Shown here one piece after another: positions 49,243 through 59,401 of a stretch of 64,000 bases of DNA. Numbering within the stretch: position 1 is the stretch's first letter; every line of letters begins with the position of its first letter. The translations under genes and the position numbers were made by a program. The notes below the pieces were generated by a model that was given only the letters and a program-made list of their open reading frames with translations, searched no databases and was not told the DNA's origin. The DNA comes from Nitrospirota bacterium (lineage in GTDB: Bacteria; Nitrospirota; UBA9217), in contig CAWFSF010000003.1 of assembly GCA_963818475.1 (NCBI GenBank), forward strand, positions 64,001 through 128,000. The letters run 5' to 3'.

Positions 49243-49598
49243 ATTTTCTCCTCATAAATTTAAAACTCATCACATTTACAAGGGCTATTTCTGCATTCTT
49301 CTTGCCATTTTAATCTGTAGGAAAATTAAGTGGTTTCAGGAAGGCGCTCCGGAAATTGTGCCATTTTTCGCGAGCGGATGACATAATACGGCACTCGAAA
49401 GGAAACAACACGAGTTGTGAAGCAAGGAAAGTACACGAGAGAAAGAAAAGTCGTTTCACGCGGAGGCGCGGAGACGCGGAGAAAACCTTACGATTCGTGT
49501 TTAGCTTCTCATCAATGGATAGTGCTGTGCCTTGACAATATCCTTTAAATGGGTGACCCTACCGCCTCACCATAGTCACCTCGATCTATTTTCAATGT

Positions 49599-51565
49599 TC
49601 AGGATTGCTTTTCCGCTTTAGGGAAGAGCCTGGCGATCACGATCATCAGGATCAGGGTCACCGCGCCGAGCACCGCGTAGAGCCCCCAGCTCTTGTCCTC
49701 GAACGCTCCCACGAAAGCGTTCTTGAACCCAGCGGAGCTTGCCGATTCGACGCTCCCCATCTCCACGGTCTTCGGCAGGACATCGGCCAGGTGCGCCTGC
49801 ACCAGGGTCAGGTCGTACTTCGCCGGCGCTGACCTTCTCGTTCCCGCCGTAGAGCGCGTACTCCCCGGCAGCAGACGCCAGGAAGAGCAGCGCCGGCGCG
49901 GCGTAGCTCGCCTGCAGCTTGCGAAGCTCGATAGGCCGGTTGTCGCCGTGCTCCATGGTGATGCGCAGCTTCTTCGCATCCAGCGGCAGGCCGGCGAGCG
50001 ACAGCCGCAGGACCGATGAGGTCTGCGAAGCGTTCTGCCAGCGCATGGTCCTCCAGACCTGCCACCCCGCGCGCCCCTGGAGCGGCAACTCGAACTGCAC
50101 CGTACGGTCGAAGATCCCGGCGGACTCGGCGGTGAGCTCCCGCAGGTCAGCTGACCGGTCCGGCAGCTCGACGGTCCAGAAGGTCCTGTTTTTCTTCTTG
50201 TCGTACTCAGGCGCTGCCGCAAGGTCGATCACCTGCTCCTCGCTCGGGCCGGAAAAGTAAGGGACCTGGAGGCCGTCCTTCACGATCCGGACCGTGCCGA
50301 AGCCCGCGCGAAGGCTTGCGTCGCGGTTCAGCACCAGCCGGTAGTATCCTGCCTCAGTGACCTTCAGCCGCGATCTGCCAGCGGAACCCCTTCCCGTCAA
50401 AGGGCCCGCCCGCGACAGCATACTTCGCGAGCAGGCTTTCAGGCTGCCACTGGGAATTCTCCTGCATGGGAGAGAATGCGACAACGGCACTGACCTTCCG
50501 CTCCTTGTCCCCCGGCGTCTCCTTGATGTTCACCTGGGTCCCCAGGCCGGTCTGCGCTTGGTAGGTGCCGGCCTTGTCAGCGTAGAAGGTCATGCGCGGC
50601 AGGTTCACGACAATCGCCATGGACTTGACCGCGCCGACGTACCTGTTGCCCGGATCGAGCCGCAGCACGAGCGAGCGCGTGGCCCAGTAGCCGTTCACGG
50701 GGATCTCGAGCAGCGCGCCGTTTTTTCCCACGGTCGTGACGCTGCCGGAGAACAGCTTCTCGAACTGCAGCTTGCCGCCGCTCACCACCTCGGACGCCCA
50801 GCTCCCAGTTGCCCTGGAACTGCGCCTCCGTCGCGAGCTCGATGTTCTTGATCCAGAGCCCCAGGCCCGGCAGGGTGGCAGCGAGGACTCGAACGCGGTC
50901 GTCGGTCTTGTCCGAGAACTTGAGCGGCACGGACTGCTGAGCGTAAGTCCTGCGCAGCGTTCTTGCCCGAAAGGGTCACCGAGGTCACCGGCAGGGTCGT
51001 CTCGCGGAAACGTTTGTCGTAGCCCTTGAAGCTCAGGCGGAGTTTCTCGTAGATGGCTGGTTTGATGATGATCTCGGCAGCAAAGCGTCCCCCGGTCGAA
51101 TAGAGGGCCGCGTTCTCAGCCAGCACGCGCCAGCCTTTTGCGTCCAAGCCCTCGATCTTCACGGTCCCCATGGTCTGCAGGGCATCCACGTCGATCCGGA
51201 TTGTCTCGACGAGCAGGTCCTTCGGCGCGTCGGCTTCCCAGACGAGCATGCGCTTCTTGTCGAAGAGCAGGCGGCTGGGCTTGAGCGCAACGCTGCGCGG
51301 TCCGGTGTCGCCTTTCCAGAAGAGCTCGAAGGAGCGCGGATTGTCGTCCGGCCCGACCAGGGTCAGGTCCAGCTGCGAGGTCTTGGCCGCGCCGTCCGTC
51401 CCGAAGAAGACCCCGGCAGGCAGCACCGTCTCGATCAGCCCCGGCTGGGTGACCTGCGCCGATGGCCTGATAGTGCCATTGCTGGTCGGCCAGAGCGGGA
51501 TTTGGAGATGCGATAAGGATAAGAACGAGGATGATGAAGAACGTTGAAGTTCGGTACTGTTTCAT
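49599..51565 (-). CDS. DUF3999-like exported membrane-anchored protein, multiple frameshifts
   Basis: Signal peptide, LRITMEHGDNRP, LLFLA...YALYGGN...YDL, C-terminal TM; reconstructed from five ORF fragments. Confidence 0.65.
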
Positions 51566-51643
51566 GCAGGTCACCTTTCTTCGAGGCCTTTATGATGTCA
51601 TTGCGATAAGTGAAGCGACAAAGCGCGTTCTGCTTCGATCCGA

Positions 51644-52048
51644 TCAAACGCTCCAGTCCGCAATCTTCAGGTTCTTTATTTGCTTAAACTCTTTGGTATT
51701 ATTGGTAACGAGGGTCGCGCCAAGCGCATGTGCGTGCGCACCGATCAGCATGTCCATCGACCCGATGGGCTTTCCCGCTCGTTCGAGCTCTGCCCGGATT
51801 GCTCCGTATTCCTGTGCCGCCTTTTCATCGAAGTCCGCGATTTCGAGCGAAAGAATGAACTCATCGAGGGCCTGCTGGTTTTTCTCTACGTGCCGGCTCT
51901 TGGATACGCCGTAGCGAAGCTCAGCAAGGGTTATGGATGAAATGCCGATATCGCCGATAGCGTGAGATTTGAAATGTTTGATCACTTTGGCGGGATTTTG
52001 TTTGATGAGGTAAATGCAGATATTCGTATCCAGCATATACTTCATCAA
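51644..52048 (-). CDS. vapC: VapC PIN-domain toxin
   Basis: MLDTNICIY, LAELRYG, IGSMDMLIGAHA, LVTNN..EF. Confidence 0.93.
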   Translation of the reverse strand: MMKYMLDTNICIYLIKQNPAKVIKHFKSHAIGDIGISSITLAELRYGVSKSRHVEKNQQALDEFILSLEIADFDEKAAQEYGAIRAELERAGKPIGSMDMLIGAHAHALGATLVTNNTKEFKQIKNLKIADWSV

Positions 52049-52272
52049 AAGTCCTCCCGTTTTTGCATCTTCGGCTGCTTCCGTTCAACCATGAAGTCAT
52101 CGGAAAATTTATCGAGGCTCTGGATCAGGGTGTCCCATGAGTTCTTTGTCGGGATCAGCACTACGACGTTTCCTGACTTCTTCACGTACACGTGGTCATC
52201 CTCGAAACGAAATTCCTTAGGCAGGCGAACAGCCTGACTTTGTCCATTTTGAAACAGCTTTGCGGTCTTCAT
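52045..52272 (-). CDS. vapB: VapB (AbrB/SpoVT-type) antitoxin
   Basis: AKLFQNGQSQAVRLPKEFRF; ATGA overlap with vapC. Confidence 0.93.
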   Translation of the reverse strand: MKTAKLFQNGQSQAVRLPKEFRFEDDHVYVKKSGNVVVLIPTKNSWDTLIQSLDKFSDDFMVERKQPKMQKREDF

Positions 52273-52460
52273 TACGCACCTCCAATTAGTCTATACGGTC
52301 AATATATACTAATTGAAATCAGATCGCAAGAGGCTTTTAGGTAATTGCAGTGCGATCAGTTGGCAATGTGCAAAGCCTAACATTAAAAGCTGGTCCCGTC
52401 GTCTTCGAGAAAAGGACTAAATGCTACAAAAGAGACTTGACCCTAAGATGTTCCTTCGCT

Positions 52461-53648
52461 CTAATGTTCCAAGCCGGTTACGATACCATTGGCTATGAAG
52501 CTGGAACCCGCCTCCAGCTCGAGTGTAAATGTTTCCTCCGTTGAATCCCGTTCTATGATCTCGCGCAATCTGGCCTGCTGCATTCCTGTTCTGTCATTAT
52601 AAAAATAGAAAGCATCTCCCGGTTGATACAGTCCAACGCTCCCTGCCTGGCGTTTACCCGGTTTATACGAACACCACCCCCTTCCCGCAACCAGAAATGG
52701 ATGGTCCTCGGTTGTCGTTATTTCCGCCCCGTTGTCGAGTTTCAGCGTCAGCAGGCGCGAGTGAACCGCCTTGACAACCTTGGTAACTGTTGCAGCAGTC
52801 AGGGCCGGTTTACTGACATCGAATTGCTTTACCCGGTCGCCGACCGCAATTGCTTCGATCGGCTTTTCCCCGTTTTCCAGCGCGATCTTCGTTCCTCTGG
52901 CAAGGCAGTGCACGTCCAAGCCGTCGAAACGGATCTCGGTGATCACCGTGTCATCGTATGCATCGCCTTTGTACACTTCCATGATCTCGAATCTGAGCAC
53001 AAGATCCTTGCCGTCGCTCGTCCTTCCGAGGGGACCCGCCAGCTTGAACGTCTGGAGCGCACGTGTGTCCTGGAGTTCAAGAATCGCGTACGGCCTGCCC
53101 GTTACCCACAGTTTCAGTTTTTTCACGCGCGAGTTCTTTTTCCAGGCTTCTTCGCTTTTTATATACCCGTTGTAGATCAGGATATCCGTGACCCGCGGAC
53201 TATTGTTTTTGAAGAAGCATTCGAGATACTGTCCTTCTCCATACCCCTGCACGCCCTCGACCCAGGCATTCTTGAAACTGTTGTCATGGGCATTCTCCGC
53301 GTCATAGGTGACATTCCCCGAGGGTTTGAGCGCGGACGACGCGGCCACCTTGTACGGCCCCCCGCCGCAGTACCAGCTGCAGCCCTGATCTTCGATGTCC
53401 CAGATTCCGAAGTCTTCGGATTCTCCCAGTCTAAGCATCAGCTCTTTCTCCCGGTCAGTCAATTCGTCCGAGAGGCCCTTTCTCACCTTTTCAATCGCTT
53501 TGTCTCTCTGCTCGAATTCATTCTGCCTCCGTATGCTCAGATCGGGAACGTCGCCGATTTTCGGCTTCAGAACAGGCAGGTTCTGCGGCTGCCCGAAAGC
53601 CGAAACGACAAACATGAAGAGCGTTAAAAAAAAGCCAAATTTTTTCAT
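52461..53648 (-). CDS. Secreted NADase-type glycan-binding/discoidin-like domain protein with C-terminal Hint domain
   Basis: Signal peptide; CSWYC, AWVEG..G.GEG, NGY.KS...W..NSRVK; H|CLARGTKI, TEDHPF, FIANGIVT. Confidence 0.85.
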   Translation of the reverse strand: MKKFGFFLTLFMFVVSAFGQPQNLPVLKPKIGDVPDLSIRRQNEFEQRDKAIEKVRKGLSDELTDREKELMLRLGESEDFGIWDIEDQGCSWYCGGGPYKVAASSALKPSGNVTYDAENAHDNSFKNAWVEGVQGYGEGQYLECFFKNNSPRVTDILIYNGYIKSEEAWKKNSRVKKLKLWVTGRPYAILELQDTRALQTFKLAGPLGRTSDGKDLVLRFEIMEVYKGDAYDDTVITEIRFDGLDVHCLARGTKIALENGEKPIEAIAVGDRVKQFDVSKPALTAATVTKVVKAVHSRLLTLKLDNGAEITTTEDHPFLVAGRGWCSYKPGKRQAGSVGLYQPGDAFYFYNDRTGMQQARLREIIERDSTEETFTLELEAGSSFIANGIVTGLEH

Positions 53649-53700
53649 TTTGGTAATCTCCCTTGCCGTTGAATATCTGCCCCACGTTAGTTTATTGCTA

Positions 53701-54324
53701 CTATTCCTTAACGGCTAATCGCGCATTCACACTTTCCAGAAATGCGGCAGCTTCCGCTGCATGAGTCATGGCAAGCAAATGACCGGCTTCTTCAACGATC
53801 TCGCATCCGGCTGCCGGACAGGGTATGACGTGGTCCTTCCTGCCGTGAAGGCGGTATATCTTACCTGTCGGACCACCTGGCCATCCCATGAAGGCAGGTA
53901 GGCACACATCGCTCGGATGAATTCTGGATCGGAATCCGCAAACATCGTACTCACCAGACTTCGATGCTTTCCGACGAGAGCCTGAATTATCGTTACAGGG
54001 GCTGCGTTAGCAAGCGGAGACAGCAGCGAAAGCATCGGCTGTACTTCCTTTCGGTTTACGGCACTGCCGAGCAGGATTACGGCCTTCGGACTCGACCAGT
54101 TGGGCGATCTCAAGAGCAACCATGCCCCCGAGGGAAGATCCACCCACAACGTCATCAGCGCCGATATCGTTTTCCTTGATGACTCTCCGGGCCACGTCTG
54201 CGTACGTTTTCTCACCGCGATATTCAGGCCAGTTGAGAAAGTTGACTTTGAATCCCAGCTTATGCTTCAGCCCGTTGTACATGGCATCTGTTGCGCCCAT
54301 TCCGGGCAGTAAGAACCATCTCAT
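53701..54324 (-). CDS. Alpha/beta hydrolase, frameshifted
   Basis: LLPGMG, GSSLGG nucleophile elbow, HG..D.VI, AGH across three fragments. Confidence 0.8.
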
Positions 54325-54539
54325 GATGACTCAGCTTTCTTTTCCAACTCTGGCTAAAACTCACGCAAGGAATCGAGCAATATTGGCGAAGAACGACAAA
54401 TGTCAAGACGCAAGACCCTAAAGGTTCCACTAATAGCTCTTTAGAGCCGATACCATAACAAAGGACCTGACCCTGTTGGGCCCCATGTCTCTAGGAAGAA
54501 ATACTATGAAAAGGGAATTCACTGCGGATTAACGACGTT

Positions 54540-55644
54540 TCATCTTCTTCTGTGAAAACTAATAGTATCAATGGAAAATTCGAGGATCTGTTCTGACCGT
54601 GTATTAAAAATTACACTGGCTTCAAAATCTGCAGAGAAATATGTTTCAACGTGGCTTTCCATGCCTTCTAGCTCTGCATTGATGAACACCTTGTCGAATG
54701 CTATTATATTGCCAAAGTACTCTTCGATAGGAATCACGAGCTTTGCTACTACAGTGAGGAGAGTGAATCGATATTCGATATAGATATCATCGCCGGAAAC
54801 TTCGGTAAAATTAACTATTTCGGGATATTCAACTCCCTCAAAATCAACAAAACTGATTCGCTCCATGTGCTTTATACATTCTTGTGGATAGTCATCCTCT
54901 TCGAGAAGAACCTTGCATTCATGAATAGGCAGCTCGTTCAAAGTGTTTATCCCAGCGTCGGTAGCGAAGTCTTCAAGCATGTTGCCATATTTTTCTTGGA
55001 ATTTATCGTGATTGAAGCTATGTATGCCTTTCTCGATATTTTTTTCGACGAAATCTTTTAGTGAGATGTATAGCTGGAACTCGTTCAATACGTTATTTGA
55101 AGTAAGATCATCACGTAAATCTTTATGCAAAGCGACTGTCGAATCATTGATCTCAAAAAAATCATTCGTATTTGCGTTGATGAATGCGACGCATTCATCT
55201 TTATTAAGTTTTTTTAGATGCTGGATTGTGGAAAGCCAGATCAGGGCATCTCGATATCCTTTTTCTTCGAGCACGAAAGGGTCTCTGACCTTTTATAGCC
55301 TTGCGTACAAGAATATCGTGTGTTACTAGATCGTGTTCTATAATATCAACGTTATCAAATTTTTCTGCAATTATTTTGGCAAAATCATACTCTATGCTGT
55401 TTTGTGCCGGCCCTTCGATTTTCATATCGATTTTAAGGTCGCTACATCTCCTCGATATTTTCTCGATTTCTTCGAGCGTCGCCTTTGATTCGGAATCGAA
55501 CTTATTTTTCAATTCCATGCAAACGACTCTCGGAAGCAGAAGCCTTGCATTCGTATTGTTTGCGAAGTTAGCAAGCAAGGAGAACTGTGGACTCTTCAAG
55601 AACCAGTTGTTAAAGAATATATTGGTATCTATTATAATGTACAT
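54540..55644 (-). CDS. PIN-domain protein (DUF4935-like), frameshift near 55270
   Basis: IIIDTNIF, V..EL, PF...KGYRDALIW, FI..N..DF; AT-rich. Confidence 0.8.
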
Positions 55645-55938
55645 ATCTCTTACCGTCTTAAAAGAATCAACTAAGAGCTAGTCGTCCGTTGCGTTAATGT
55701 ATATATCCCTGATTCTACCATCCCATATAACGTTGTTGTTGAAATTGCATTACGTAATGAAACGCAACGGGTGCAACAACGTCACTCGGGCGCGGACAAT
55801 TTTTATGCTGCTGCGAAATAGGTGCAGAATGTTCAAGGACATCGTATATTCATAACAGTACCTAATTCCCCCTGATGGTTTGTGAAGAAAATCACAAATT
55901 CCATCAACATCCCGGAAACGGTCTCACGCGGCGGTTTT

Positions 55939-58425
55939 TCACTCCCTTCTTACCCTGACAGGTATCGTCGTAGTCACGCCGATCTGAATTGCGACCGGCG
56001 TATAAATATCCACAGCCAGATCGGGGGTATTAATGGAAACAATTAAGGAGTAACGGCATCGTTTATTCCATCGCTCTAGTTGATGTCGTTCCCTCCACCA
56101 GCCAACAGCAGGATAAACGGCAATTAAATTCGATGTTGCAAGATCGGCAGCTGTTCCTTGCCAAATATCGGAGTGTATGGAGCCGACGTTACGGGCTTCT
56201 CCAATAAGCCATTTGTCCCGTGGACCTTCGGTACCCGGATGTTCTCCCTCATCATCTCGTGCTTGCGTATTCACGCGCTGCACAAACTCATCTTCCGTTT
56301 CGCTTGGTCCATTCATTTCAAATCTAAGAGCATGGGAAGCATATCTATAGCGGTTGTCCCATCCGATTTCGCCCGGTCCTGGCTCAACAAAGTAAGAGAG
56401 TGTGATCCGCATTTTTACCAGCGTCTCACCCAATTCAGTTAAAACTTCGGATGGCCACGGCAGTTTGTACAGATGCATATCCTTGGTAACATATCGAGAG
56501 TCTATCTTATCAAAGGGTTGCAAGTCAGTTTCTGAAATCAAAGTCAATGAATTAGCCGCGCAGTATAACGCTCGCTCAAGATTCGGAACGCCGTATCCGC
56601 AAATGCGAAGCAATCTTGCGTAATCTTGTTTGGTAGGTTCAAGAGTGTTTATGAATTGCGCTTTCATCACATCGGTCCAATCGGCGGTGTGCACGATCAT
56701 GGCGCGTACCGTTTCAGGCCAGAAACTCGGATATTGAGTCTGTATTTGTGCAGCCATCCACGCGGCCTGTCCAACTGCGGCGCTTGTAGCATGAAATGGT
56801 GCAAATTGTTCCACATGTGGTTCATGCGACGTGGAAAGTAGCTTAAGATCCTCAGGGTCATACATAGAGTCATTGGGTCCGCGCGCTACATTCCCCCCTT
56901 CAAAAACAACGTCAGGTTTGATAGGCCATTTGCGCGGACTCCAAGTAGAAGAAGTAGTGCTATATGGGGAAAGTCCGCCTGAAGGTGCGAGGGGAGTAAA
57001 AGCACTGAGAGTCACGTCAGCTATATGCGTTTTTTCGGTAAAGGCACCGACCGTAAGGGCATTCCAAGCTTGCCCCGGGTCATGAACTTGGTTCGTAAGG
57101 TTGTCAGTTGGATAATTGCGCCAATTGATCGGATCTTCAACATTACCTGCGCTCAGCACTATGAGCCGGTGAATGTCGCCTTCATATCCCGAGGCTAATT
57201 CATCCACCATGGCCGACCAAGAGGAAGGTCGTCCTCGATCACGGTCTTCCGTTGAAGTTATTGCCAGGCACACAATTCGCTTACGCTGAGGCGCTTGAAT
57301 TTCAGCGAGCGAAATTCCTTGTGAGGTCATGTGACCCCATAATCTTTTTTGATTTTCTGCGGGCGGAGGTGGCAGGATTTTTGCGGATTCCAGACGATGG
57401 CCTACGTAGACCGGGTCTCGGCTATTGAGTAAAGCAAGCAAATCACCATAGGCTGCTGTTCCAGCCATCAGGGTCCCATGACCCTTATGGTCATGCACCC
57501 CCCATGAGGGATCGATTGCGTGGCGGTCGCTGTTGTTCAGGACTGGCTGGAGGAGTAAGTGCCCGTTGTTTACTCCCATGTCGAGAATGCAGATTGACAC
57601 GCCCGCGTTATCATTAAAGTCGGTACGGCTTAGCAATTCCCGTACACGTTCCACTTGCTCGCGATTTTGCAGTTCAATAAAAAAGGTTGCTACTTGCTTA
57701 GCAGCGCGATACTCAGAAATGTCATCAGAAGACTCGGCCAAGCGTTCCAATTGGCTCCGATTTGCTTTTATAAGCATCACTTGTCGTTCGGGAAACTTCA
57801 GGACACCCTCAGATGCCTCGATGTTAACCTCTCTAAGTAATGCTTCAAAGCGCGACAAAATCTCCACCTTATCGCCTTGCAGCCACACTTCGACCCATTC
57901 AGGATCGTCACCTGGTATCAAATCATTTTCATCTGAACGCCAGAAGGATTTCAAGACCGCTTTGCGAATATCGGAAATGCTATCAACTAATTTGGCATTT
58001 TTCGGCTTATTGCTTGGCCCATGCTCCAGCGCGTATGCCTCAATCTTCTTGAGAAAATACCCCCGTTGCCTGTGCGGGACATAAACGGTTGCGAGTGTGC
58101 GTTGTGACGATTCGCCTCCTTCTTTACGAATATTCAGAAGACGAATTCCTGATCGAATATTTTCGAGACTTTGAATTGCTAAATCGAACCCCGGTTCGCT
58201 CTCAAATTCAAGATACGCACCATGACGTTCAACCTGAACAACGGCCAGTTGCCGATCAACTTCACTCCACGTTTGCCGAAGACGCTCTTGCAGATAAGCA
58301 CTGTGAAGATCGCGGTCTCTATTTTTCGGGATGCGGTCGGTAGAACTGCCCCGCCGTGGGTTGGTATACCCCTGAGTGCGTGAAGGTCCTGACAATAATA
58401 TGTGTCTATAATGCTCTCCAGCCAT
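55939..58425 (-). CDS. ietS: S8 subtilisin-like protease, IetS-type
   Basis: ILDMGVN, HGTLMAG, IKPDVVFEGGN, ATSAA, GYGVP; directly downstream of AAA ATPase. Confidence 0.88.
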   Translation of the reverse strand: MAGEHYRHILLSGPSRTQGYTNPRRGSSTDRIPKNRDRDLHSAYLQERLRQTWSEVDRQLAVVQVERHGAYLEFESEPGFDLAIQSLENIRSGIRLLNIRKEGGESSQRTLATVYVPHRQRGYFLKKIEAYALEHGPSNKPKNAKLVDSISDIRKAVLKSFWRSDENDLIPGDDPEWVEVWLQGDKVEILSRFEALLREVNIEASEGVLKFPERQVMLIKANRSQLERLAESSDDISEYRAAKQVATFFIELQNREQVERVRELLSRTDFNDNAGVSICILDMGVNNGHLLLQPVLNNSDRHAIDPSWGVHDHKGHGTLMAGTAAYGDLLALLNSRDPVYVGHRLESAKILPPPPAENQKRLWGHMTSQGISLAEIQAPQRKRIVCLAITSTEDRDRGRPSSWSAMVDELASGYEGDIHRLIVLSAGNVEDPINWRNYPTDNLTNQVHDPGQAWNALTVGAFTEKTHIADVTLSAFTPLAPSGGLSPYSTTSSTWSPRKWPIKPDVVFEGGNVARGPNDSMYDPEDLKLLSTSHEPHVEQFAPFHATSAAVGQAAWMAAQIQTQYPSFWPETVRAMIVHTADWTDVMKAQFINTLEPTKQDYARLLRICGYGVPNLERALYCAANSLTLISETDLQPFDKIDSRYVTKDMHLYKLPWPSEVLTELGETLVKMRITLSYFVEPGPGEIGWDNRYRYASHALRFEMNGPSETEDEFVQRVNTQARDDEGEHPGTEGPRDKWLIGEARNVGSIHSDIWQGTAADLATSNLIAVYPAVGWWRERHQLERWNKRCRYSLIVSINTPDLAVDIYTPVAIQIGVTTTIPVRVRRE

Positions 58426-58444
58426 GCGGCTTTTATCCTCTTAA

Positions 58445-59401
58445 TTACTGGTGAATGCTCTGACGTTCCTTCAGCATTTGTAGCAAGAAAGCTGGGCTAA
58501 CCTTCTCCTTATCAGAGAGAATGGTCTGTTTTATCGCATCCCGACAGGCTTGGTCGATTTCAGCATGACTCAAACCATTCGATTCAGAAACCGCATCTTT
58601 CCATGAAAATTTAACCGCGAGAAATGAACTCAATAGATTTTGCATTAAGCGCTTCCTGGCCTGATCATCCGGTAGTTTATAGTAGAGCACATCGTCAAAG
58701 CGGCGAAACAGTGCCCGGTCCAATAATTTTGGGCTGTTTGAGGCAGCGACTATCAAGCTATCTGAAGTGTCCTGTTCGATGAATTGCAAAAAAGCATTCA
58801 GAACCCGGCGCATTTCACCTACGTCGTTGTCCATAGATCGCTCACCGCCGATAGCATCGAATTCATCGAATAGATACACCCCTGGCTCCTGCTGGATCAG
58901 CTCGAATATCTGTCTGAGCTTGGCACTGGTTTCTCCCATGAACTTTGTAACCATCTTGTCGACCTGAACGGTATTAAGAGTTAGTCGTAATTCATTTGCC
59001 AATACCTGAGTTGTCATTGTTTTGCCCGTCCCGGGTGGCCCTACAAGTAATATTTTTCGCCGATGGGACAGACCGTGGCTCTTCAGTTTTTCCTGCTGCC
59101 GATATTCATGAATAATCCGATCAACCCGGTTCATAAGACTGTCCGGCATCACGAGGGTCGCCTTGGACGTTTTCGGTTGCTCTGACAGCACGAGACCCCG
59201 CAAATCTTGAGGAAACTTCAGTACTCGCGGACCCCTTTCCTTCCGTGCCTTATCAACAATTTCACGGATATCGACCGCTAAAGCACCGTGCCCCTGCTGA
59301 GATTCATGCGCCGCTACCTGAAGAGCTGTAGTGAAAAAACGCTCAGGATCGCTGCTGAAATGCGATCGGATAAGTGCTTTTAATTGTTCCGCAGTCGCCA
59401 T
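58445..59401 (-). CDS. ietA: AAA+ ATPase, IetA-type
   Basis: GPPGTGKT, LFDEFDAIG, LDRALFRRFD. Confidence 0.88.
   Translation of the reverse strand: MATAEQLKALIRSHFSSDPERFFTTALQVAAHESQQGHGALAVDIREIVDKARKERGPRVLKFPQDLRGLVLSEQPKTSKATLVMPDSLMNRVDRIIHEYRQQEKLKSHGLSHRRKILLVGPPGTGKTMTTQVLANELRLTLNTVQVDKMVTKFMGETSAKLRQIFELIQQEPGVYLFDEFDAIGGERSMDNDVGEMRRVLNAFLQFIEQDTSDSLIVAASNSPKLLDRALFRRFDDVLYYKLPDDQARKRLMQNLLSSFLAVKFSWKDAVSESNGLSHAEIDQACRDAIKQTILSDKEKVSPAFLLQMLKERQSIHQ

Follow-up and report, generated by a model that had tools for sequence, protein, structure and literature searches.

A secreted CBM32-like protein of a Nitrospirota bacterium carries a terminal BIL-type Hint domain predicted to remove itself at a His|Cys junction

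The stretch analyzed here, called the window, comprises 64,000 nucleotides of a Nitrospirota bacterium genome (contig CAWFSF010000003.1, positions 64,001 to 128,000). On its minus strand, to which all feature coordinates of the gene refer, positions 52461..53648 encode a protein with the marks of secretion and a C-terminal Hint domain. The open frame translates into a precursor of 395 residues and closes with a TAG stop at 52461-52463; a Shine-Dalgarno-like AAGGGAG, read off the sequence, lies at 53658..53664, 9 nucleotides upstream of the ATG. A first-pass annotation made from the letters alone had described a signal peptide, a glycan-binding-type domain and a Hint domain without the terminal His-Asn, and its coordinates, Cys248, TEDH block (residues 313-316) and open frame were borne out by the sequence. 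Residues 1-19 (MKKFGFFLTLFMFVVSAFG; 53592..53648) have the features of a signal peptide with a probable signal peptidase I site before Q20, and the MKKFGFFLTLFMFVVSAFG|QPQ N-terminus looks like type I. They are followed by a helical region (residues 20-91, 53376..53591; helices 39-56 and 65-74 in the structural model), which ends where a G-C-S-W-Y-C-G-G-G motif begins. Promoter and terminator scans around the gene gave no signal above chance or shuffles, no RNA data set carrying the gene was listed, and the search of the 4.66-Mb, 7-contig genome found no second copy. A near-length search returned 630 homologues (E<=1e-3), mostly from Bacteroidota. A hydrophobic leader is common to the homologues, and lipobox-like motifs occur in only 4 of the 134 that carry the Hint domain (long forms). 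Residue counts given below come from an alignment of 121 family sequences.

The domain that follows the helical region (residues 92-247, 52908..53375) is of the CBM32 / F5/8-type-C fold, NADase translocation type, and ends in ...FDGLDVH. Pfam NADase_transloc (PF25302) matches residues 92-242 (E 5.5e-47, 160.1 bits, cut-off 27), NCBIfam NADase_discoid (NF047619) matches residues 103-240 (E 5.3e-40, 136.5 bits, cut-off 38), and the family profile finds PDB 7ji1, the translocation domain of Streptococcus pyogenes NADase, at E 1.2e-9. An AlphaFold2 model built from 88 family sequences (mean pLDDT 91.1) superposes over residues 90-245 on galactose-binding CBM32/discoidin structures with Z 13-15. 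The N-domain is homologous to the S. pyogenes domain and to CBM32, with which it shares the fold, and by this homology it is predicted to bind glycans. For the NADase domain, PMC9887584 reports that it recognises carbohydrate, citing Velarde 2022. Unlike the streptococcal enzyme, the window protein has no attached NADase or other catalytic domain, and the G-C-S-W-Y-C-G-G-G motif and the ...DVH end are traits of its family. The motif (residues 89-97, window 53358-53384) stands just ahead of the CBM32-like core and is near-invariant (C90 in 115 of 121 sequences, W92 in 120, Y93 in 121, C94 in 118). It is found in homologues with and without a Hint domain alike and is probably a disulfide or metal site.

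The Hint domain (BIL type) occupies residues 248-393 and is followed by Glu394, at the +1 position, and His395 (52464..52907 in all). Model residues 241-395 superpose on BIL2 of Tetrahymena BUBL (6tmm) with Z 23.1 and a root-mean-square deviation (rmsd) of 1.8 over 148 aligned residues, on the Clostridium thermocellum BIL 2lwy with Z 20.9, on Hedgehog 1at0 with Z 19.1 (rmsd 1.8, 135 aligned) and on many inteins with Z 17-21. Foldseek gave a target-normalised TM of 0.89 against 6y75. Matched to structures, the family profile reached E 9e-16 for BIL2, 5.4e-9 for 2lwy and 0.02 for Hedgehog. TIGR01445 (intein_Nterm) matches residues 248-320 (39.3 bits, cut-off 24.5), and Pfam AXH (PF08517), at residues 250-332 and 34.6 bits (cut-off 33), is alone among the Hint-related Pfam models in passing its cut-off. 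On the window protein Hint, Hint_2, Intein_splicing and PT-HINT all score under theirs (Hint PF01079, 20.7 bits against 29.7; Hint_2 PF13403, 22.1 against 28.4 and residues 248-277 only; Intein_splicing, 32.3 against 35.8). The terminal domain has the Hint superfamily fold, an observation far beyond chance. Both domain calls of the first-pass annotation thus agree with the Pfam, NCBIfam and fold matches.

The predicted scissile junction, His247|Cys248 (CAC TGC, 52905..52910, with the Cys codon TGC at 52907..52905), was placed by conservation and by the ends of the short homologues described below. Ahead of it D245 is kept in 117 of the 121 sequences, V246 in 119 and H247 in 115; the nucleophile position C248 is kept in 120, and Cys1 is present in 134/134 long forms. 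Block B (T313-E-D-H316, then P317; 52701..52712) is equally well preserved, with T313 in 120 sequences, D315 in 116, and both H316 and P317 in every one. W325 (120/121), F384 (117/121) and N387 (116/121) complete the conserved set. This retention occurs in a domain that evolves faster than its partner: mean identity is 0.445 for the Hint part against 0.526 for the N-domain, and columns conserved at >=90% make up ~15% of the former against ~36% of the latter. The pattern argues that the Hint fold and its N-terminal catalytic set are intact and under selection.

The C-terminal end of the domain is another matter. The protein closes with ...FIANGIVTGLEH, so that only two residues (E394 and H395) follow the Hint domain. 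Aligned with relatives ending in VHN[KS], the degenerate block G (F384-I-A-N-G-I-V-T-G-L-E394, 52467..52499) has G392 where those relatives have His, L393 where they have Asn, and E394 at +1. Position 392 is Gly in 106 and Ala in 11 of the 121 sequences; position 393 is most often Val (65), Thr (26) or Ile (21), 112 together, Asn not being among these three commonest residues; and E394 is kept in 117. The family-wide end can be written V-G-[VTI]-E, and the tails beyond E394 have 0-18 unconserved residues. The absence of His-Asn and of a C-extein, noted at first from the single sequence, therefore holds across the family. We also searched the Hint part alone against 1.84 billion representatives, which gave 2172 matches (E<=1e-3), and took 203 full-length Hint domains from the best-listed proteins. 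These end in V-H-N-[K/R/S] in 131 cases, in x-N in 15 and in neither in 57, and among the 57 without Asn the +1 residue is Glu in 52. The nearest His-Asn-type relatives (P0122, P0127, P0128, P0133) are often tandem arrays, with 3-7 BIL domains (...VHNK|CF...) per protein. With Gly-Leu (in the family, Gly-[Val/Thr/Ile]) standing where His-Asn would be, splicing through Asn cyclisation is impossible in the window protein. Nor does the domain otherwise look like an intein, since +1 is Glu instead of Cys, Ser or Thr, and only His395 follows E394.

An assembly error or a cut-off 3' end could have produced the same picture. This possibility was ruled out. A 90%-identical homologue carries the same GLEH end, the degenerate end is conserved in the family, and contigs of related strains from independent runs, where they cover 52454-52585, differ by substitutions and never by indels. 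None of the listed contigs spans the full stretch, and four runs lack depth at 52402-52452, just downstream of the stop. The agreement of homologue, family and contigs indicates that the 3' end is genuine; a canonical His-Asn plus extein was not restored.

The family is broad in taxonomy and sparse in occurrence. A genome scan gave 446 loci, and among the 80 kept, 71 belong to Bacteroidota, 3 to metagenome-assembled genomes labelled Bacillota, 2 to Elusimicrobiota, 1 to Nitrospirota and 1 to Calditrichota; the Nitrospirota locus is the closest, with 65% identity. Genomes of cultured strains, among them Aquimarina, Flavobacterium beibuense and Chryseolinea serpens, have the long form. In an even phylum sample around an Aquimarina genome (G031), 8 of 301 Bacteroidota genomes match, G031 included, and these 8 divide into 4 long forms, 3 with the N-domain only and 1 with the Hint only. 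The gene was not found in 5 genomes of the window's genus (65-92% complete), and among 30 relatives of the window genome only fragments of the architecture occur, in 2 of them. The low frequency in Bacteroidota and the same-genus absences mark the family as accessory and patchy. A search of the ESM Atlas returned the family's own clusters and nothing else. One homologue, P0147 (546 residues), has a TonB_C domain (residues 466-539, 2.2e-7) after a Hint domain without His-Asn; its position suggests a periplasmic setting in which the Hint side would stay attached and the glycan-binding domain would be set free.

By sequence and fold the window Hint lies nearest to the A-type BILs (2lwy; BIL2 of Tetrahymena BUBL, 6tmm/6y75). 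The window family shares C-[FL]-x-x-G-T, T-x-D-H-P, W325 and NF-x-A-N-G-x-x-V with the 131 His-Asn-type relatives. According to PMC7765530, these domains sit in secreted or variable proteins rather than in conserved housekeeping hosts, and the A-type retains a C-terminal His-Asn at which it cleaves. The window family differs in having G-[V/T/I/L] in place of His-Asn, followed by a conserved Glu, and in a Hint domain that is always terminal and should cut the N-terminal junction only. In block F it has Thr375 where BIL2 has the Zn-binding His125. We read the window Hint as an A-type-like BIL that appears to have lost His-Asn and gained a Glu at +1. In predicted behaviour it is close to the B-type BILs, which, in the same source (PMC7765530), are reported to cleave the N-terminal junction without a C-terminal motif; by sequence it falls outside that group (Hint_2, PF13403).

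The protein had also been called Hedgehog-like. The likeness stands for the architecture: as in Hedgehog/Hog (1at0), a secreted N-domain is joined to a C-terminal Hint domain with Cys1, TxxH and no terminal Asn. It does not extend to sequence and fold, which are nearer to A-type BILs (profile E 9e-16 against 0.02 for Hedgehog, with Pfam Hint under its cut-off). The junction of Hedgehog is Gly|Cys, whereas that of the window protein is His|Cys. The window protein also ends 2 residues past the Hint domain and has no sterol-recognition region; the Hedgehog sterol-recognition region (SRR) is described with motifs K and L in PMC2362128. Neither a sterol nor any other acceptor is implied for the window protein. 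The same text (Buerglin 2008, crediting Dassa and Pietrokovski) reports secreted bacterial proteins with a C-terminal Hint-like domain in Myxococcus, Stigmatella, Photorhabdus, Serratia, Yersinia and Reinekea. Their described layout is like that of the window protein: behind a signal peptide comes a conserved region that includes two conserved cysteines, and the Hint-like domain forms the very C-terminus. They come from other taxa (Proteobacteria), and the likeness lies in the description.

A survey of homologues with and without a Hint domain, proposed at the outset, gave the most telling result. Two Elusimicrobia loci encode 248-residue homologues, 58-59% identical over residues 1-247, that end in ...FDGIDVH and then stop. 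With one of them as query, 915 matches were obtained, and 75 of the 92 newly listed proteins have fewer than 300 residues. In 74 of these 75 short homologues the last residue is the His that aligns with H247, immediately ahead of Cys1; 72 close with ...DVH and 2 with DDH or DTH; the single exception stops 43 residues into the Hint domain. A genome from the window genome's own family has a 207-residue version ending in ...GVGVH. Three short forms were read from DNA (L043, L048, L082), and no degenerate Hint remnant was seen 3' of the stop in any of them; in the searches of the window genome's relatives, of five further genomes and of the Bacteroidota sample, no match read through a stop beyond residue 249. 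One full-length copy is present in each of the five genomes (5/5), 4 of them long and 1 short, and the two forms look like alternatives.

To follow the history of the tail, the N-domains of 134 long and 74 short forms (208 in all) were placed on a FastTree tree, from which P0014, P0023, P0044, P0084 and P0282 were left out (short N-part, no junction motif or partial tail). Presence of the Hint domain changes 22 times on this tree, and the minimum falls to 17, 11 and 9 when branches with support below 70, 90 and 95 are collapsed. Shuffled labels gave means of 57, 45 and 37 at these three levels (37-61 overall). Because FastTree supports are optimistic, 9 is the number of changes to trust. Across sequence pairs, identity in the N-domain correlates with identity in the Hint domain (r 0.77, a value reached in 0 of 500 permutations), which indicates that the two have travelled together. 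The simplest history would be a single fusion followed by repeated clean losses. Short forms that end at H247, one form per genome and repeated changes of state together describe the Hint domain as a dispensable, precisely excised C-terminal module. Since Cys1, T313 and H316 are kept and 74 of 75 Hint-less homologues end at the same point, self-cleavage at H247|C248 is strongly suggested.

On these grounds we lean, with restrained confidence, towards the view that the Hint domain is a functional pro-domain that removes itself at H247|C248 and whose thioester is hydrolysed. The precursor would be exported by Sec, the CBM32-like domain ending in ...FDGLDVH(247) would be the working part, and the last 148 residues would be a BIL-type Hint domain that takes itself off. 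After export and folding, Cys248 would attack the carbonyl of His247 in an N-to-S acyl shift aided by T313 and H316; we infer this step from the conservation of these residues and the established chemistry of Hint domains, and it is the only Hint chemistry remaining to the protein. The thioester would most likely be resolved by water. Glu394 may assist as a plausible activator of water, a role proposed because +1 is the place where canonical inteins put the nucleophile that attacks the same thioester. The products would be an N-domain with a free ...DVH-COOH, the same end as in the Hint-less homologues, and a spent Hint fragment of 16 kDa. As the short forms share this invariant free end, hydrolysis would be a sufficient route to the functional product. 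The 0-18 unconserved residues after E394 leave no room for recognition of a substrate or acceptor, and no conserved gene neighbour was found when 863 open reading frames (ORFs) from the 80 loci were clustered (best non-family cluster in 7 of 80 loci). The Hint domain could thus act as a traceless and dispensable pro-domain, with a possible benefit in the timing of maturation, folding or export.

Several considerations weigh against self-removal by hydrolysis. Cleavage is deduced at every step from sequence. Of the 208 sampled sequences, 134 have the Hint domain, though one mutation (a single nonsense change) would remove it without trace. This suggests a role beyond falling off, and transfer of the thioester to an acceptor would explain such retention. 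The closest solved relative, Tetrahymena BIL2, turns its thioester into an isopeptide bond with lysines (PMC8616854). A lone catalytic Cys might be blocked in an oxidising periplasm. The strict His end of the short forms need not mean that a free carboxylate is required; it could also reflect the route by which the Hint domain is lost, namely a Cys codon turned into a stop. A single change converts TGY (Cys) to TGA, L043 has TGA directly behind its last His codon, and four other short-form matches have one stop each at the junction (1 TGA and 3 TAA). The stop codon is known in these five cases, too few to test the idea.

The most serious competitor is transfer of the thioester, the idea of the first-pass annotation, which we regard as unlikely. 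Here a nucleophile of the envelope (for example a protein lysine, a hydroxyl group on a glycan, or an amine supplied by peptidoglycan or phosphatidylethanolamine) would capture His247, the lectin would become covalently tethered, and the Hint-less homologues would be its soluble form. There is precedent in the transfer of Hedgehog to cholesterol, as summarized in a review, and in BIL2 of BUBL, which makes its Lys isopeptide without ATP (PMC8616854). Besides accounting for the retention of the Hint domain, transfer would supply the anchor that the mature domain otherwise lacks, lipobox-like motifs being as rare in short forms (2/74) as in long ones (4/134). The same figures can be turned round, for the short forms have a free ...DVH end and were not seen to carry a compensating lipoprotein anchor. 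Hedgehog/Hog domains have an Asp or His, at position D46 in Hedgehog, by which the acceptor is activated. In the window protein, His296 (Hint residue 49, 52761..52763), invariant in all 121 sequences and without an assigned role, might serve such a reaction; it sits 2 residues past the Zn-binding H48 in the alignment with BIL2. This position, however, is also His in 62 of the 131 His-Asn-type relatives (Arg in 28), so it is not specific to the window-protein family. Transfer further calls for a region that recognises the acceptor, and none is seen after or beside the Hint domain, the tails being short and unconserved; there is no conserved partner gene, and the Hint surface evolves faster than the N-domain (0.445 against 0.526).

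A Hint domain that cleaves and has no role of its own is a doubtful alternative. It would be a near-neutral passenger, lost lineage by lineage, whose catalytic residues, like those of an intein, are kept only because a non-cleaving copy would cripple the host protein. Traceless removal with a product equal to the short forms is what this predicts; the at least 9 to 22 presence/absence changes required, the finding of one form or the other in the genomes checked, and the sparse distribution (8/301 Bacteroidota genomes, 0/5 same-genus relatives) fit it as well. Against it, no homing endonuclease or other means of spread is present. The Hint domain has co-diverged with the N-domain (r 0.77) over a deep divergence (~40% identity) across Bacteroidota classes, a persistence hard to sustain without benefit when a single mutation suffices for loss, and the +1 Glu, gained and kept (117/121), looks like adaptation of the module.

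Finally, a Hint domain that does not cleave and serves as a binding module in an intact two-domain protein is highly improbable: the AXH matches (34.6 bits against a cut-off of 33, the sole Hint-related Pfam model to pass; E 1.2e-9 of the family profile to ataxin-1 AXH structures) and the loss of the C-terminal catalytic motif would suit it, but a pure binding domain has no need of the invariant or near-invariant Cys1 and block B Thr and His, the short forms end exactly at the junction, and it is active BILs and inteins that the domain matches in fold over its full length.

The AXH match merits comment in its own right. The eukaryotic AXH domain is understood as a binding module, nuclear and non-catalytic. 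Positions 244-353 of the family profile match the structures of ataxin-1 (1.2e-9) and HBP1 (2.6e-6); AXH covers the first two-thirds of the Hint domain only, and no AXH entry is among the 50 best fold matches. With Pfam AXH, bacterial BIL-type Hint domains reach as much as 118 bits (P0129, P0174, P0176; residues 246-351 in the window protein), so the model fits a clade of bacterial Hint domains no less than it fits the eukaryotic module. The eukaryotic AXH domain looks like a derivative of this bacterial clade, and we found no statement of such an origin in the open-access literature.

The surroundings of the gene look like a variable, mosaic island, probably horizontally assembled, with no functional link visible. 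Directly downstream, at 51644-52272 (-), is a VapBC-type pair, a PIN protein (134 residues, 1.2e-19) preceded by a MazE/AbrB-type antitoxin (75 residues). Directly upstream, at 53701-54324 (-), a thioesterase / alpha-beta-hydrolase-like gene lies in short ORFs in different frames (105 residues with a Thioesterase match of 5.3e-6, 68 residues and 149 residues) and is probably a pseudogene. A PIN_12 domain is split over overlapping ORFs at 54540-55644 (-), with profile positions 1-139 in 55204-55644 and 140-172 in 54540-55274, a sign of a single gene with a frameshift or a sequencing error. Beyond it, PADLOC identified an IetA/IetS anti-phage pair at 55939-59401 (-), consisting of an AAA ATPase (58445-59401; IetA, 1.7e-74) and an S8 subtilase (55939-58425; IetS, 7.9e-33); the Hint protein itself has no PADLOC defence-system match. 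Across 49500-56000 the G+C content goes from 0.63-0.65 at 49.5-51.5 kb, where long ORFs without Pfam matches lie, to 0.38-0.40 at 54.5-56 kb, and it is 0.49-0.54 in the Hint gene.

The Hint/BIL type, N-terminal autocleavage and secreted bacterial proteins with a terminal Hint-like domain are already in print. We found no paper on the window-protein family in the open-access literature. Three things are new here: His-Asn is replaced by G-x with Glu at +1, the Hint domain is constantly paired with a CBM32-like domain, and homologues that lack it terminate at the junction. The window Hint is best described as an uncharacterised variant of an already known self-processing domain and not yet as a new anchoring route.

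Terminal Hint domains on bacterial secreted proteins are common in sequence data and almost unstudied. This family offers a natural experiment, in which the same glycan-binding protein occurs with and without the Hint tail. Because the tail-less form ends at the predicted cut, both the cleavage site and the mature product can be predicted ahead of bench work, and whether such domains in bacteria simply detach or pass their cargo to another molecule becomes a question for one mass-spectrometry measurement. A compact Hint domain of 148 residues, predicted to cleave at its N-terminus, with a Glu at +1 and no Asn, could interest protein engineers, and the match between a bacterial Hint clade and AXH hints at the origin of the AXH domain of ataxin-1 and HBP1. 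If thioester transfer proved true, the protein would be a one-shot ligase, working without enzyme or ATP, by which a CBM32-like lectin becomes covalently fixed to the surface or wall of the cell; bacteria would then have their own equivalent of the cholesteroylation of Hedgehog or the isopeptide formation of BUBL.

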